Shown: positions 51,001 through 60,000, counted from the stretch's first letter. The stretch: DNA of 64,000 bases from a candidate division FCPU426 bacterium (GCA_963771075.1 CAVYSE010000020.1:79651-143650); one strand, 5' to 3'. Numbers: made by a program.

Positions 51001-54000
51001 GGACGACGGGGTTGGTTTTGGGAAATCCCCCTATGCGGGCTCCGGGACGGCCCTGGCCAATTGCCGTAAACGTCTCGAGCTTGCCTATGACGCCCAGGGC
51101 GGGCTGGAGATATTAGGAAAGACAGGGGGGCGGAACCCAAATCATCATGAGGTTTCCCGCGGTTAGCGCGGGGAAATCAGGAGGAGAAACATGATCCGCG
51201 TTCTTTTGGTGGACGATGAGACGCCGGCCCGGGGAAGGCTCGCGAGGCTTTTAAGCGAAATCAAGGATATCCAGATCGTTGGAGAAGCCGCCAACGGTTT
51301 GGAAGCCCTATCGGCGGCCCAGGAATTTAAGCCCGATCTGGCTTTTTTGGACATCGAGATGCCTGAACTCAACGGGCTGGAGGTGGCCGAGGCTTGGGCC
51401 GATAACGGACCCGCGGTTGTTTTTGTGACCGCCTATACCGAGCACGCGCTCCGGGCTTTTGAGGTTTCCGCCCTGGATTACCTGGTCAAACCGGTCTCGG
51501 CGGATCGGTTGAGCGAGGCCTTGGACAAGGTCCGCCGTCATAAACCCCAACCCGGGCTGGAACAATTCCAATCCTTCCTGGAAAAGTTCCAGGAAAAAAG
51601 GGCCAAGCGGCGCATGGCCGTGAAGTGCGGGTCCCGGTACCGGGTGTTGGACCCCGAAAGGGTCACCGCGATCGTGGCGAAGGATCACTATGCCTCCATA
51701 CTCGTGGAGGGACAGGAGATCCTTTGTGACGACAGCCTGGATCACCTGGCTCAAAGGCTGGACCCAGGCCGGTTTTTGCGCATCCACCGGGGCGCCGTCA
51801 TCAACTTGGACTTCCTCAAGGAACTGGAGCACCAGGGAGACCGGAAGTACCTGGCGGTCCTTTCGGATGTGGCGAAAACGAAACTTCTGGTCAGCCGCGA
51901 AAGACTGGATGAATTGAAGGAAAGGTTGGGTCTTGGCTAAGACGGGTTCTTTTCATGCAGGTTCTTCGAAGGTTTGGGCCCTGGCCCTGTTTTGTACAGC
52001 GGCCCCGCTTCTGTTTGCCCAGACACCTACGGCGACAGCAATTCCCGACCTAAAGGGCTTAAGCCCGGGGGAGGAACAGCAGATCCTTCGGGCGATCGAT
52101 TCGCAAAATAATTCATCCACTCCGACAACCCTCGACCTTTCCGGTTCCGGTTCGGTTTCCTCCGCTATGACCCCGGCCCAAACTCAAACGACGCCCCAAT
52201 CCTCTCCGGGCCCGGTGACCACCGCGGACCTTTCGTCAGGGGAACCCCAGCCCCCGACGGGACTTACCATCCTGGTGTTGAAGGAAGGGGTTTATCTTTC
52301 CTGGGACGCGGGCTCCTCCACCGCGGCGACGACTTACAACGTTTATCGGTCCACCATGCCGGGTTCGGATTACAAACAAATTAACCTGAAATCGTTGACC
52401 GCGCCCTATTTCCTGGATGGCGTGCCATCCAGTATTTCACCTCCGAAAAACGGGGAAAATTACTTTTATGTGGTTACCGCGGTCGATACTCAAGGCCGTT
52501 TAAGCGACTATTCGGATGAGGTCGCCGTGACACCCAAAGATATGGAAATCCCTGAAACGGAGAAACAAGGCAAAAAAGGTGTCCTGACCGTCCCCGGGAC
52601 TGAACAGGAGGAGGAACTCAAGATCCCGGAGCAAAAGATCATCAGCCTTCAGCTCCCCGCGGATACCCAGCTTTCGATCCAGGGATATAAAAAAATCGAG
52701 GCGGATTTTTCCTTCCAGAAATTCAACCGCCCGGACCAGAATGGCATTCCATCCGAGGTGGATAGCACTACGGTGAACCAGGAAATGGTCGTGAACCTGG
52801 AGGGAAAGGTCGGCAAGAACGTGGACGTGCACGTCGATTACAGCGACGTCAACCGGGCGGGCGGGGTGGACCAAAGCAAGCAGGAAATATCCATTGTCTA
52901 CCACGGCGACAGCAACAGCCCGGTCCAGGAAGTTGCGTTCGGAGATTTGCAAATGAACCTGCCCAACACCGAATTCGCCGGGTTCAGCAAACAGCTTTTC
53001 GGCCTCCAGGCCAAATTGAAATTCGACGATTTCCGGGTGACAGCCTTTTTCGCCCAGACCAAGGGCATTTCCGAGACAAGGGTTTTTAACGGGAACACGG
53101 GCCAAGTGGATAAGGTTTACAACGACACCGATTACATACGGGAAAGATATTTTCTAATCACGAAGGAATATATCGCGAGTACCAGCGGGGTCTCCCAGAA
53201 CATGGCGCTCCCCCAGGCCAACGCCGAACAAATTTGGGTCAATTCGGGAACCGGCACCTCGACTTTGGCCACAGGGACGAATTTTATCGGGGCTTACGAG
53301 CACTGGCTTCCGGGGCGGGATTACACCCTCGATTACAACACGGGGATCATCACTTTTATCCGATCGGTGCCCATGAGCGCCCAAATTGTGGTCGGCTTTA
53401 CCAATAAGTTGGGCGCGAACCGGGGTTTGTTCGTCGTAGCCGGGGGCACCAGCCCCTCGGCGATCGGGAATGTATTGGGGTTCGGCAATTCGTCCGCGAT
53501 CGCCAACTTCCAGGTCCCGCCGGACGGGGTGATCTATACCGGAGTCAATCCAGCCAACTTGAACAATATTCTCATCAAAAACAACAATAACACGACCAGC
53601 GCCCTCTACCTGGTGGATTATTTTGACCTGGGCAGGGACAAGATCATCCCGCCCCAGCAGGACCCCAATTTCGTTTTCCAGGTCATCGACCAGGGAACGA
53701 ACGACGTTTTGCAGACCGGCCAAGGCGGTTTGGGCCAAAACTCGCAACCCTGGTCTTATGTCATGAACCAAGACTTCAATTATCTGGTGGTCACCAACAC
53801 TAACAACACCAATGTCACGGTATCGGCGGGGGTCACGACTAATTTCTCGGAAAGGGCCTTTGTGGATCCCAATGTGGACCCCTCTTTGGGGGCGGGCACT
53901 AACGGGATCTACAACGAGGCCACCGTGCCCACCAGCCTCAAACGGATACACCTGGTCTATAAAACCCAGTTAAATTATTTTCAACTCAATCGATTCAACA

Positions 54001-57000: not shown

Positions 57001-60000
57001 TCCCTTTAAAACCATCGCTTTGACGGCCTTCGCGGGCCGAACGGAAAACGCCTCATCGGCTATACCGAATTTCAGGGCCCTGCCTGCCGAGCCGACTTTC
57101 GACCAGGTATGGGGAATGGACCCGGATAACGCCTATGCCTTGAACTCGACCCAGTCCCTGACCGATCAGATCAATTTCAGCTTCAGGCTATTTGATTTTT
57201 GGGATTTCAAGCCGACTGGTTCCTGGACCACGCAGGGAAACCTATTATCGCCTGGCACCAACCCCGTGACCCAGCAAAGCGACACCTTGGGTTTCACGAC
57301 CGTTTATAACCGCAAATTACTGGTCATACCCTTCATCAACGTTGGTTTTGACTCGGCCCAGTTCCAGTACACCCGGACCGATTCCACCCAATGGGATAGT
57401 TCCTCTCCCCCGGTCATCTCTGGCCAAAGCGCCAATGAAACCTATTCATTCACGGTGCCTTATGATATCGCCAAACAATCCCAAGGGAATGTCAGGTATC
57501 AACGTACGGATGGTTTCACCAACACCAACGGGATCATCACCAACCAGACCGATGACCAGTATTCCATCCAATACAACCAGAAATTCCTTGAAAATGAGAT
57601 TTTGCACATTCCCTTCACCCATTGGAAAATCAAGTTCGACCAGGCGATCGAGCTTCAGGCGAATTTCCTGGCGGAGTTCGTAAATAACCTCAGCCCGAAC
57701 TACAGCCTTAATAACCTTCAGACTGAAAAATACCGCGGCACACTACAGCTCAATTACAATGCCATGAAAAACCTGAGGATCGGGTTGGGGGTGGTAAACG
57801 AGTACTTTGTTGAGGACAATCCTTACCCCTACCTGGGTTACGATATGTGGCAGATCAATATCTCCGGCGAAGCGAGGTTTTAGTGATGCTTTCGACTGGG
57901 AAAAAGGGCCTTACTTTTAACCACCCGCGGTTGATCCGAAATCAACTTGTCCTAACGGTATTCCTTTGTTTCCTGTCGATGACCCGGGGAGCGGGCGCTC
58001 AAACACCAACCCCAACCCCGCTTCCGTCTCCTTCGGCCTTCACCGCGGCATCGGGGAATGGGGTGGTGACCTTGGGGTGGAACCCGCTTTCGGGCGCATC
58101 TGATTTTTTCATCTACAGGGCCGAATCAGGGGCTTACTATTCATCCATAACCCCCGTTCCCGTAGCGACCGTCATGGCTTCCGCCAGCCCGTTGACCTAC
58201 ATTGATGGACAGGTCGCGAATGGCGATTCTTATGTTTATACGGTCATGGGGCAGGATTCCTCTGGAAACCTTGGCTCCCCCGCGACCGTAGCGGCTAACC
58301 CCTACGCGCCTCCCCAAGCGATCCAAACCTTGACGGTTCATTCCTTGCACGCCGGAGCCCTGGACCTCTCTTGGCAAGTTCCCCTTTCTTCCTATCCGGT
58401 TACCGGGTATCAGGTCTACCGCTTGGGGGTTACCACCACACCCACTCCTCTGGGGACACCACCGAACGCCTCGCCGACCCCGACCTTTAACACGGGGCCT
58501 ATTCCGGCTTCAACTGTGATCGCGGCGGGTGCTCCTATTACGCAAGTCTCCTTAACATCCTATTCGGATCAACCGCAAACTTTGGCTAATGAGTATTTTT
58601 ATTATGTAGTATTAGGAATGGATTCGAATGGCGTCACTGGATTCACGCCCGCTAATTCAAGTGTGGCCGGATACCCGCAATCCAATAAACCTTACGCCCC
58701 GATATTGTCCGCTGAATTGGCGGCCACTTTGACTCCCGTCCCCGCGAGCGGCGGTTATGGCGTCATGCTCCAATGGACGGGTTCCTTGGATTCCGAGGGG
58801 GTAACGGCTTACCAGGTTTTTTCGAACGGCGCCACATTAGCAACTATCCTTGTGACCCAGACCCCCGTCCCAATCGCGACCTATCAAGACCAGACAATTT
58901 CTTATTCCGCCAATAGTCCGGCGACTTATTCGGTCATGGCTATCAATGGAAACGGAATCAGTTCCATCCTTTCGAACTCGGTTGCCGAAACAATTACCCA
59001 ACCATCCATCAATGGGGTTGTTTCGGCCATTCCCATACCCACCAATGAATCAGTTTCCATTAGCTGGAGCCAGGGAATTACGGGAACCTACGGCATCGCG
59101 GGATATCAAATATTCAAAAGTACTTATCCCAATCCATTGGCAACCACAGGGACCCCAGTTGCTACTCCCACTCCTTTCGCAACGATCATCGTCACCCCTT
59201 TTGGAACACCGACTTTGGTTTGCATAGATTCCGCTGTCACGGACGCAAGTGGCCTAACCTATTGGGTCCAACCCTATGCGGCTGTTACGGCGGGGGGAAT
59301 AGCCACCACGCCAACCTACTTGGATCTGGGCCCGACTCCAGTGGCAACCGTGGCGGTGGCCACAGCCCCGGGAAATAACGCCTTTCAATTGGCTTGGACG
59401 AGCGGTTCTACAGGATTTTATGGAACACCTGTGGCTTATCAAATCTACCGCGAGTACTCCACCACCACTACCCCCACCCTTACACCCGTCGCCACGGTTC
59501 CATTTGGACAGATCAACTATACCGATTACGCGAGCGGAGTGACCGCGAATACGTATTTTAGTTATCAAATTTCCGTCCTGGATTCTTTGCAAAATCAATC
59601 CGACCTATCTCCCTCTTCGAATAGCGTTTATATCAATTCCAGTTCGCCATTAAGCCCTCCCTTGGCCCCGGTGGCGCTTCCGGTCGTGGGAGGACCGAAT
59701 ACTTTGGTTTTTCCATGGCTGTTGAACCCGACCACGGACGCAGTCACCGTTTACAATGTCTATGGTTTCGATTATCCAACGAACCCAAGCGTCACGCCCC
59801 TCAGTACTTATGTGCCCCCTGTGACTTCACCAACCATGACACCCGTTTTTGTATCGCCCGCCACCCCTTGGGTCGTGAATAATTATTACTTAACGGCCCA
59901 GGGCCCGTCGGGTTCCAGCCTGCCCACAACCCTATCTTGCCTCGGCGCTTCGGCTATTACCTTATCGGCGGCCATACCTCCCACTACCCAGGCAGTTTCC

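Follow-up and report, generated by a model that had tools for sequence, protein, structure and literature searches.

Genes and structural models suggest a pared-down type IX secretion system, confined to the outer membrane, in candidate division FCPU426

The bacteria that carry the names Goldbacteria or FCPU426 appear to share, across their whole phylum, a form of type IX secretion that is confined to the outer membrane. This is a proposal drawn from genes and models, and we give it slightly better than even chances. It best explains the parts in hand, i.e. a full-size SprA-type pore, PorV-like barrels and about 100 proteins with a C-terminal sorting domain (CTD), together with the lack of any recognizable PorU, PorZ or GldK/L/M/N. 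The study genome (G000) is 96.7% complete, and its sprA locus lies in the window, which is the whole stretch of 64,000 nucleotides that was analyzed:

43475..47424, plus strand: lipid A genes lpxD, lpxC-fabZ, lpxA and lpxI-like (named by reading the sequence, not by family search)
47447..50253, minus strand: pair of LptF/LptG-like genes for LPS export permeases, oriented divergently to sprA (labeled from the translations; starts uncertain)
49964..51940, plus strand: LytS/LytTR-type two-component pair (BtsR/LytR matches), directly upstream of sprA and overlapping it
51933..55268, plus strand: SprA/Sov-type translocon, N-terminal part, ORF of 1111 aa, in frame to about 55090
55091..55098, plus strand: run of 8 G that breaks the sprA frame, as judged by an intact 1969-aa relative (L036)
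55190..57883, plus strand: SprA-type translocon, C-terminal part, ORF of 897 aa, final residue Phe
57847..62466, plus strand: secreted repeat protein of 1539 aa with a type-A-like CTD (repeats fn3-like by sequence reading)

The survey's finding of a distant SprA homologue split over two ORFs holds, both by fold matches to SprA and by the relative L036, in which sprA is a single ORF with 72% identity. The N-terminal part comprises a signal peptide, a low-complexity linker and the first barrel strands with the cap, as well as one fn3-like domain, labeled by reading the sequence. It scores 168.2 bits with TIGR04189, whose curated cut-off of 200 bits neither half in the window reaches, and the C-terminal half has no NCBIfam match at E<=1. 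The two halves were modeled apart from each other and not as a whole protein. The AlphaFold2 model of the C-terminal half (pLDDT 83) has about 26 barrel strands by our own count on the DSSP line, and its top four Foldseek matches in the PDB (8GL8, 8GL6, 6H3I and 6H3J; TMq 0.43-0.46) are all SprA, with E-values of 3e-21 to 6e-18 and the next match at 7e-5. The N-terminal model is weak (pLDDT only 61, TM about 0.2); its top four PDB matches are SprA as well (E 1e-24 to 2e-13). Counted by ourselves on the models, the long strands number about 11 in the N-terminal and 26 in the C-terminal half, and the SprA fold has 36. The models thus predict a very large single-chain barrel of the SprA fold, with low confidence in its N-terminal half. 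The final Phe is invariant in 24 aligned relatives. Most likely, the frame break is an assembly error at the run of 8 G: one contig from a bog metagenome (run X2) has one extra G in the tract, which joins both sprA frames, and in run X1 there is depth at 55091-55098 and the longer tract is not seen. Across the phylum, TIGR04189 matches 92 of 99 genomes and exceeds its cut-off in seven.

The surroundings of sprA are partly conserved. A gene linked by BLAST to the 1539-aa protein follows sprA in 14 of 20 regions of relatives, which makes this protein a candidate for a core part of the system or its first cargo; its CTD reaches 26.1 bits on TIGR04183, above the cut-off, and 19.2 bits in another scan, and it matches no Pfam family at E<=1e-5. 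In 13 of the 20 regions, the LptF/LptG-like cluster is found no more than a few genes away from sprA. The LytS/LytTR-type pair precedes sprA in five of six regions of the genome's own family and in no other family. The lipid A genes lead us to infer that this organism builds an outer membrane with LPS.

The cargo set is large, and larger than the roughly 80 proteins counted before. An iterated CTD profile is joined by 115 of 9440 ORF tails and by none of the 9440 reversed tails; without five anti-sigma proteins and five others that lack the terminal strand, 105 type-A-like CTD proteins are left. TIGR04183 matches 52 of the 88 candidates scored, 47 of them above its cut-off of 23 bits, and the members of the 105 beyond these matches rest solely on the genome's own profile. 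The type B model TIGR04131, which also matched no positive control, hits none of eight candidates. Likewise, the reported expansion of PorV/PorQ-family proteins is borne out, with 22 barrels rather than 17 (26 NF033709 matches in 22 ORFs). Twelve of them pass the whole-protein cut-off of 90 bits and ten score 30-90 bits, whereas the equivalog cut-offs of NF033710 (250) and NF033711 (220) are missed, with best scores of 79.8 and 115.4 bits among the matches listed. TIGR03519 (PorP/SprF) gives a weak match to one of the 22 only (28.7 against 90.55 bits). All 45 near-complete genomes of the phylum have such barrels, with 8 to at least 37 matches each.

The absence of PorU and PorZ is confirmed. 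In the study genome, all 40 matches to NF033707 are confined to model positions 961-1095, i.e. to the CTD, and the PorZ matches are limited to the CTD, too. A C25 profile built from nine relatives finds nothing there at E<=10 in six frames, and PF01364, which matched no positive control, yields no candidate. Throughout the phylum, PorU is found in 0 of 99 genomes (six candidates per genome scored). The C25 profile does work in this phylum, since eight of the 99 genomes have matches with E-values of 1e-28 or below; in the study genome's own family, the count is 0 of 31. The loss of PorU therefore appears real and phylum-wide at the level of sequence. The C25 proteins of the eight relatives were considered as PorU and rejected, as the best of them scores 62 bits against 420. 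A conserved protein with a CTD and, by sequence reading, a propeller (C9:32207-33739) was considered as a stand-in for PorZ; in other genomes, three loci have its gene ahead of a barrel gene, an order that the study genome does not show.

A candidate stand-in for PorU is a conserved subtilase with a prodomain, an S8 domain and a CTD directly behind, without a stalk. It scores 168.7 bits with PF00082, and its conserved Asp, His and Ser motifs predict an intact catalytic triad. An alignment of this protein, 23 rows of which derive from the same 99 genomes, matches 77 of these (52 of the 60 of high quality), mostly in one copy, and reaches the CTD in 73. A barrel gene stands directly behind the subtilase-CTD gene in 19 of 20 and 16 of 19 loci, often downstream of coaBC. 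By comparison, 0 of 76 S8 loci from metagenomes in which the CTD is lacking contain a barrel gene anywhere in the locus, and many of these loci are short; the metagenome scan with this alignment otherwise returned mostly generic S8 genes and is uninformative on taxonomic range. If the subtilase with its own barrel does stand in for PorU, cargo may still be cut. More specifically, PorU may have been replaced non-orthologously by a barrel-seated subtilase that cuts most cargo CTDs, with cargo released or re-attached and the barrels serving as recycled shuttles. This reading is possible, if rather unlikely. The wide and mostly single-copy occurrence of the subtilase, its adjacent barrel gene and its retained motifs speak for it, and the arrangement would resemble PorU sitting on PorV, whose locus tags are consecutive in P. 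gingivalis (PMC7712824). However, in six of six genomes of one family and one of one of another, the alignment has no match and SprA is kept, and S8 proteases with type A CTDs are ordinary cargo in Bacteroidota, too (Atlas rows). The substrates of the subtilase are a proposal from sequence, and we know of no subtilase that acts as a sortase.

Five barrels of the study genome bear a periplasmic tail, composed of a strand and a TPR part, and always stand beside genes for an ECF sigma factor and an anti-sigma protein with a CTD-like domain. The sigma factor consists of regions 2 and 4 only (Pfam matches in three of the five genes) and is followed by a single-span membrane protein; we infer that this membrane partner is its anti-sigma factor, for which an Atlas look-up gave a best score of 0.87, to be read as a lead only. 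The tailed barrel lies within 8 kb of the anti-sigma gene in all five cases here and in 34 of 41 in relatives. The five CTDs of these cassettes cluster together (SH-aLRT 85, quick tree only). In the anti-sigma protein, the CTD-like domain has neither the first strand of a CTD nor the terminal motif, and a complex model seats the strand of the barrel tail in this domain, with a score of 0.81 as compared with 0.01 for the best control. Of 157 solved complexes, 116 attain the mark used, as compared with 2 of 215 mismatched pairs. At least 86% of contacts are common to the runs, and the partner has a pLDDT of at least 85. Alternatively, for these cassettes only, the translocon may grab the CTD-like domain as a secretion checkpoint, without the tail as partner. 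That the domain still joins the CTD profile suits this idea; we consider it improbable given the missing strand and motif, the predicted insertion of the tail strand into the resulting gap, and a genome (G039) in which the same tail follows the anti-sigma gene on a protein other than a PorV barrel. With FecA-FecR-FecI surface signaling, in which an outer-membrane barrel, a membrane anti-sigma and a sigma factor form one unit, the cassettes share these three components, but they have no TonB-dependent receptor. The PorA-PorV-PorXY-SigP route of P. gingivalis (PMC7712824) is similar in combining a small CTD protein, a PorV-type barrel and an ECF sigma factor, and its link from PorA to PorY is given there as unknown; by contrast, the barrel described here comes with a periplasmic tail of its own, which by prediction completes the CTD-like fold of the anti-sigma.

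It had been held that nothing could be said about the motor. Yet 20 of 45 near-complete genomes have SprA and no FGE-sulfatase domain whatsoever, as judged by a model that matches 3 of 14 controls, so these 20 have no recognizable PorK; the study genome has one generic, unlinked member. GldK is above cut-off in none of five, GldM was found in 0 of 45 and GldN in 0 of 4 genomes (both without a positive control), and GldL gave noise only; a Parabacteroides plasmid record with sprA, tried as a control for the Gld models, has no gldN. A topology scan of the study genome for GldL-GldM-like pairs put out three, none plausible, and in 26 loci, there is no conserved pair of unknown membrane genes near sprA. 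Four of the five MotA/ExbB-family genes lie in ExbB-ExbD-TonB operons. As a motor substitute, these operons were rejected, as TonB-receptor-like genes adjoin three of them, and neither sprA nor a PorV-like barrel adjoins any. It could be argued that the system is complete but highly diverged, with motor, ring and sortase escaping profiles trained on Bacteroidota. SprA falls below its own cut-off in 92 of 99 genomes, the Gld searches are short of positive controls and the study genome is not quite complete. We nevertheless regard this as quite improbable, given the C25 profile that works in the phylum and yet finds nothing in the genome's own family, the FGE-sulfatase domain missing from 20 of 45 genomes and the lack of a GldL-GldM-like pair by topology.

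Barrels and CTD genes are paired, more often than reported: a CTD gene immediately precedes 13 of the 22 barrels, instead of the 9 given before. When the CTD list is drawn more strictly, the figures are 11 of 22 for barrels and 75 of 3664 for the genes of the whole genome (p 7e-14). About 90 cargoes must consequently share barrels. The notion of one private barrel per enzyme, each holding its cargo for good and explaining the barrel expansion, fits the 13 pairs and their CTDs, which mostly form long, separate branches in a quick tree, but is very improbable with 105 cargoes for 22 barrels, about 90 of them lacking an adjacent barrel, and five barrels accounted for by the signaling cassettes. 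The orphan CTDs form groups of 45, 20, 16 and 6 rows in the same kind of tree, and those of the stalked enzymes, most of which have no adjacent barrel, belong to few classes.

In the outer-membrane-only system that we favor, cargo would pass the inner membrane via Sec and enter SprA, its CTD would bind a barrel, and both would exit sideways together. The expanded barrels would sort cargo, a role of PorP/SprF in Flavobacterium. About 13 would hold the product of the neighboring gene with its CTD uncut, one of them the subtilase as a possible trimmer or releaser of cargo, and the remaining nine would be shared by entire classes of orphan cargo. Most stalked enzymes would belong to these classes, probably held at the C-terminus. 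Fused periplasmic tails would specialize barrels, with OmpA-like domains anchoring them in the wall, the part that PorE plays for PorP, and the strand-plus-TPR tail completing the anti-sigma's CTD-like domain and thereby linking the surface state to the ECF sigma factor.

An uncut CTD that stays on a barrel is plausible, but it is not the new, second mode of surface attachment that it was taken for, as it has been published for type B CTDs with PorP/SprF (PMC9143113; PMC12618676) and for the PorU-PorV and PorZ-PorQ pairs. It is supported by the same state in P. gingivalis porU mutants, in which uncut cargo remains on the PorV barrel (PMC5562754); a review puts forward that CTDs are shielded from cleavage by cognate PorV-like barrels (PMC10202324), and export in F. 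johnsoniae does not need PorU (PMC9127263). Some barrel-paired proteins consist of a signal peptide and a CTD alone (136 aa in the study genome, 118-142 aa in relatives), so that cutting off the CTD would leave nothing.

With the type IX systems of F. johnsoniae and P. gingivalis, the system shares the SprA-like giant barrel, PorV/PorQ-family barrels and type-A-like CTDs on Sec-exported proteins; PorU, PorZ, GldK/L/M/N and type B CTDs were not found, and 8 to at least 37 PorV-like barrels take the place of PorV and PorQ. According to structural work, the GldLM motor of F. johnsoniae is needed to release the carrier-cargo complex from SprA (PMC10994853); this counts against the favored reading, as the searches for a motor substitute described above found none. 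The type B/PorP-SprF/PorE system (PMC9143113; PMC12618676) is similar in its barrel gene directly behind the cargo gene (PMC12618676), its many paralogues, orphans sharing a barrel, the uncut CTD (here proposed), and TPR and OmpA-like wall-binding parts. Unlike there, scores assign the CTDs to type A and the barrels to the PorV/PorQ family, and the barrel itself carries the TPR and OmpA-like domains as fusions, instead of PorE. The PorU-PorV and PorZ-PorQ pairs (PMC5562754; PMC10202324) also have a surface protein that keeps its CTD on a dedicated barrel, and a protease gene before the barrel gene, but the protease here is an S8 subtilase and not a C25 cysteine protease, and no PorZ double propeller was found. 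Reviews place type IX secretion only in FCB phyla, and the excerpt of PMC11285876 does not list this phylum among those with T9SS genes; we found no published account of a sortase-free type IX system or of a barrel-sigma cassette.

A more detailed version, doubtful as a whole, describes a minimal system of SprA without PorLM motor, PorKN ring and PorU, in which carrier barrels do all the sorting, the subtilase is the CTD peptidase, and donor-strand barrels plug into anti-sigma CTD-like domains, with loading or a ligand outside setting transcription inside. If true, type IX secretion would here have a minimal and perhaps ancestral form, with a TonB-independent route of cell-surface signaling. 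A phylum that retains SprA along with carriers by the dozen and about a hundred cargoes, but no motor, ring or sortase, raises the questions of what a minimal translocon requires and how it is powered. Two sets of parts are small and expressible enough to serve as test systems, namely the subtilase together with CTD substrates and the tail of the barrel together with the domain of the anti-sigma.

Thr-rich stalks end within 135 aa of the C-terminus in 71 of the 105 cargoes, and 18 lipoprotein-like proteins carry the same kind of stalk behind the lipid-anchor Cys. Such stalks are no proof of tethering, because 181 also stand between inner domains. Many CTD-tagged proteins are plant-polymer hydrolases, and the system as a whole may be a clue to the way in which these uncultured cellulose degraders put their enzymes on display; among 42 cargoes scanned, 16 are carbohydrate-active enzymes, all of them without an adjacent barrel.

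A type IX-like secretion system that lacks its sortase is a real and phylum-wide feature of these bacteria; the proteins of relatives carry the labels Goldbacteria/Goldiibacteriota, FCPU426 and Coatesbacteria in their sources. In the window, its translocon is encoded by two reading frames:

51933-55268: SprA-type ORF, first half, overlapping the second
55190-57883: SprA-type ORF, second half, overlapping the first

In NCBIfam profile searches, the first ORF reaches 168.2 bits against the SprA model TIGR04189 (cut-off 200), and the second yields no match at E<=1. Fold prediction, based on an alignment of 24 sequences, gives the second half a long series of barrel strands (pLDDT 83), and its top four PDB matches, at E 3e-21 to 6e-18 and TMq 0.43-0.46, are all structures of SprA, ahead of a fifth at E 7e-5. 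The first half folds weakly (pLDDT 61), with SprA still providing the top four matches at a TM of about 0.2. Profile searches find SprA in 92 of the 99 phylum genomes, and in relatives it is undivided, as in a 1969-aa protein of 72% identity (locus L036). The frame breaks at a run of eight Gs (55091-55098). The survey's finding had suspected a sequencing frameshift. One bog metagenome contig carries one extra G in this tract, which joins the frames; in a second sequencing run, which has depth at this position, the extra G was not seen. The break is most likely an assembly error, with phase variation as a possible alternative.

Several neighbors of sprA recur in relatives: lptF/lptG-like genes (47447-50253) lie close to it in 13 of 20 relatives' regions from several families, and a large repeat protein with a C-terminal type IX sorting domain (CTD; 57847-62466), for which a Pfam search returned no family, is coupled to it in 14 of 20. 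The LytS/LytTR-type pair directly upstream (49964-51940) is an insertion limited to the genome's own family.

To collect the cargo, we iterated a CTD profile from the window's 1539-aa protein and searched it against 9440 ORF tails of the genome, of which it gathers 115, compared to none of 9440 reversed tails. Excluding five anti-sigma proteins and five proteins without the terminal strand, 105 cargoes remain, more than the roughly 80 previously estimated. TIGR04183 has 52 matches among the candidates, 47 of them above cut-off, while the type B CTD model, run without a positive control, matched none of eight. Carbohydrate-active enzymes account for 16 of the 42 cargoes (out of 105) scanned in Pfam: six GH5, members of GH8, 9, 12, 16, 28, 30, 44 and 116, a PL4 and a deacetylase. 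In 71 of the 105 cargoes, a stalk ends at most 135 aa from the C-terminus, and in 18 of 134 lipoprotein-like proteins it directly follows the lipid-anchor Cys; this placement hints at C-terminal tethering of the cargo, against which stand 181 stalks between inner domains. The Thr-rich stalk of these 18 proteins (e.g. C1:26606, C16:59326, C20:33654) is the same as that of the cargo, which suggests a second, lipoprotein-based route of surface display. A related Ig domain, lacking the terminal CTD motif, forms the C-terminal end of three secreted proline-rich proteins (C15:23726-25186, C5:141513-143051, C24:25105-26613), which cluster together in the tree.

The outer-membrane barrels are similarly numerous. 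The 26 matches of NF033709 correspond to 22 ORFs, not 17 as first counted; 12 pass the family cut-off, none among the matches listed passes the PorV or PorQ equivalog cut-offs, and one weakly matches PorP/SprF. Seven are barrel-only and 15 have a C-terminal extension, OmpA-like in three. PorV-like barrels occur in all 45 near-complete phylum genomes, with 8 to at least 37 copies each. A CTD gene lies directly 5' of 13 of the 22 barrel genes, mostly overlapping, so that the pairing noted before stands and its count of nine was too low; with a stricter CTD list, 11 of 22 barrels follow a CTD gene, compared to 75 of 3664 genes (p 7e-14). Of two tandem barrel pairs, one (C7:51129-55048) follows a CTD gene seemingly split in the assembly, and the other (C7:30325-34105) lies within flagellar genes.

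The reported absence of PorU and PorZ is borne out. All 40 matches of the PorU model in the genome are confined to its CTD, a C25 profile from nine relatives, run unfiltered, has no match at E<=10, and PF01364 finds no candidate, nor did it match any positive control. C25 domains are present in 8 of the 99 phylum genomes and in none of the 31 of the own family; with six candidates scored per genome, none passes the PorU cut-off of 420 bits, the best C25-region score being 62. PorZ was found in none of five genomes, its matches here covering the CTD only. GldM (0 of 45 genomes) and GldN (0 of 4) were searched without a positive control, and GldL gave noise alone. The absence of GldK is a firmer answer: the FGE-sulfatase domain, whose model matches 3 of 14 controls, is wholly missing from 20 of the 45 near-complete genomes, all 20 with SprA, and the sole member in this genome is generic and without gene linkage. 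No motor substitute for GldLM was found in this genome. A conserved propeller-plus-CTD protein (C9:32207-33739), which has the genome's top type A CTD score, is a possible PorZ analogue; in three loci of other genomes (L081, L084, L085) its gene is followed by a barrel gene.

For PorU, a conserved subtilase is a candidate stand-in, judging from sequence and gene order:

C18:151502-154167 (L069:8503-11165): subtilase-CTD and barrel-only gene pair behind gmk-rpoZ-coaBC

Its catalytic triad is conserved, and in our genome the CTD abuts the catalytic domain. An alignment, of which 23 rows were drawn from the 99 phylum genomes, matched 77 of these genomes, mostly in single copy, with the match extending into the CTD in 73. 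Among fetched loci, selected as best matches, 19 of 20 and 16 of 19 have a barrel gene directly 3' of the subtilase-CTD gene, compared to none of 76 metagenomic S8 loci without CTD, many of them short; in Porphyromonas gingivalis, the locus tags of porU and porV are consecutive (PMC7712824). Against this role, two families (7 genomes) keep SprA without a subtilase-CTD protein, and in Bacteroidota S8-CTD proteins are ordinary cargo. Mainly because of this candidate, the loss of PorU does not imply that cargo stays uncut.

It had been proposed that uncut CTDs stay on private barrels as a second mode of surface attachment. Such retention is plausible but, by analogy with published systems, known in kind: PorP/SprF barrels hold uncut type B CTDs, with the same cargo-then-barrel gene order as here, and PorE may tie them to the wall (PMC9143113, PMC12618676); PorU on PorV and PorZ on PorQ both remain with their CTD uncut, and for cognate barrels a review suggests a role in shielding CTDs (PMC10202324); PorV accumulates cargo in porU mutants (PMC5562754); and F. 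johnsoniae without PorU still exports ChiA, RemA and SprB (PMC9127263). One barrel per enzyme does not apply, as about 90 cargoes have no neighboring barrel. In a quick tree from few columns, the CTDs of these orphans group as 45, 20, 16 and 6 rows, and paired CTDs mostly form long separate branches, which fits a few shared barrels for orphan cargo.

From the observed parts, absences and gene linkage, we infer a system that works like type IX. Cargo would leave the cytoplasm by Sec export, enter SprA, be captured by a barrel, either private or specific to its class, and exit laterally with it. Paired cargo would remain on its own barrel, orphan enzymes would be kept on shared barrels or cut by the subtilase, and barrel tails would serve as anchors or report to sigma factors. 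In F. johnsoniae, loading is energy-free and release requires GldLM (PMC10994853). The system here falls outside the canonical one, as neither its attachment complex nor its ring was recognized. According to one paper, T9SS genes do not occur beyond the FCB phyla (PMC11285876), and a word search of a Goldbacteria paper (PMC7031533) finds 'type IX' in its reference list only. Searches of the open literature list no report of such a system for the phylum, of PorU being replaced by a subtilase or of the barrel-anti-sigma cassettes described below; distribution data may sit in subscription papers or supplementary tables.

Five sigma cassettes lie outside the window:

C11:322269-326678: sigma cassette
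C3:363559-367920: sigma cassette
C21:64713-70855: sigma cassette, barrel tail in two copies
C28:208585-211761: sigma cassette
C20:37425-45595: sigma cassette

Each comprises an ECF sigma factor, a single-span anti-sigma-like protein, a CTD protein (among them a PA14-CBM9 protein, an NHL propeller and a bare CTD) and a barrel; all five barrels share one periplasmic tail, in which a short, alternating hydrophobic strand precedes TPR helices. The periplasmic end of the anti-sigma-like protein is a CTD-like Ig domain without its first strand, recognized ahead of complex modeling. All 31 family genomes have a match to its gene, in some to the Ig part alone, and overall 39 of 99 do. In 40 fetched loci, we recognized 41 such genes (36 loci), with a tailed barrel within 8 kb of 34, a CTD gene of 35 and a sigma gene of 32. 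The modeled complex of tail and Ig domain scores 0.81 (best control 0.01); the mark applied is attained by 116 of 157 solved complexes, compared to 2 of 215 mismatched pairs. Contact agreement between runs is at least 86%, and partner pLDDT at least 85. The tail strand is placed against the domain's first and last strands. This model supports binding of the barrel tail to the anti-sigma Ig domain, although an incomplete Ig fold may take up strands easily in models.

In L150:7490-10466 (relative G039), the anti-sigma gene is followed by that of a non-PorV protein with the same strand-plus-TPR tail. Elsewhere, a CTD gene and a TPR-tailed barrel precede a HAMP histidine kinase and regulator (C18:208230-213309) or a SpoIIE/HATPase protein, a STAS protein and a TPR protein (C18:155137-167935), possibly further signaling outputs of barrels. 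Finally, two serpin genes, one lipoprotein-like, lie within and beside one sigma cassette (C21:68185-69510, C21:63183-64518).
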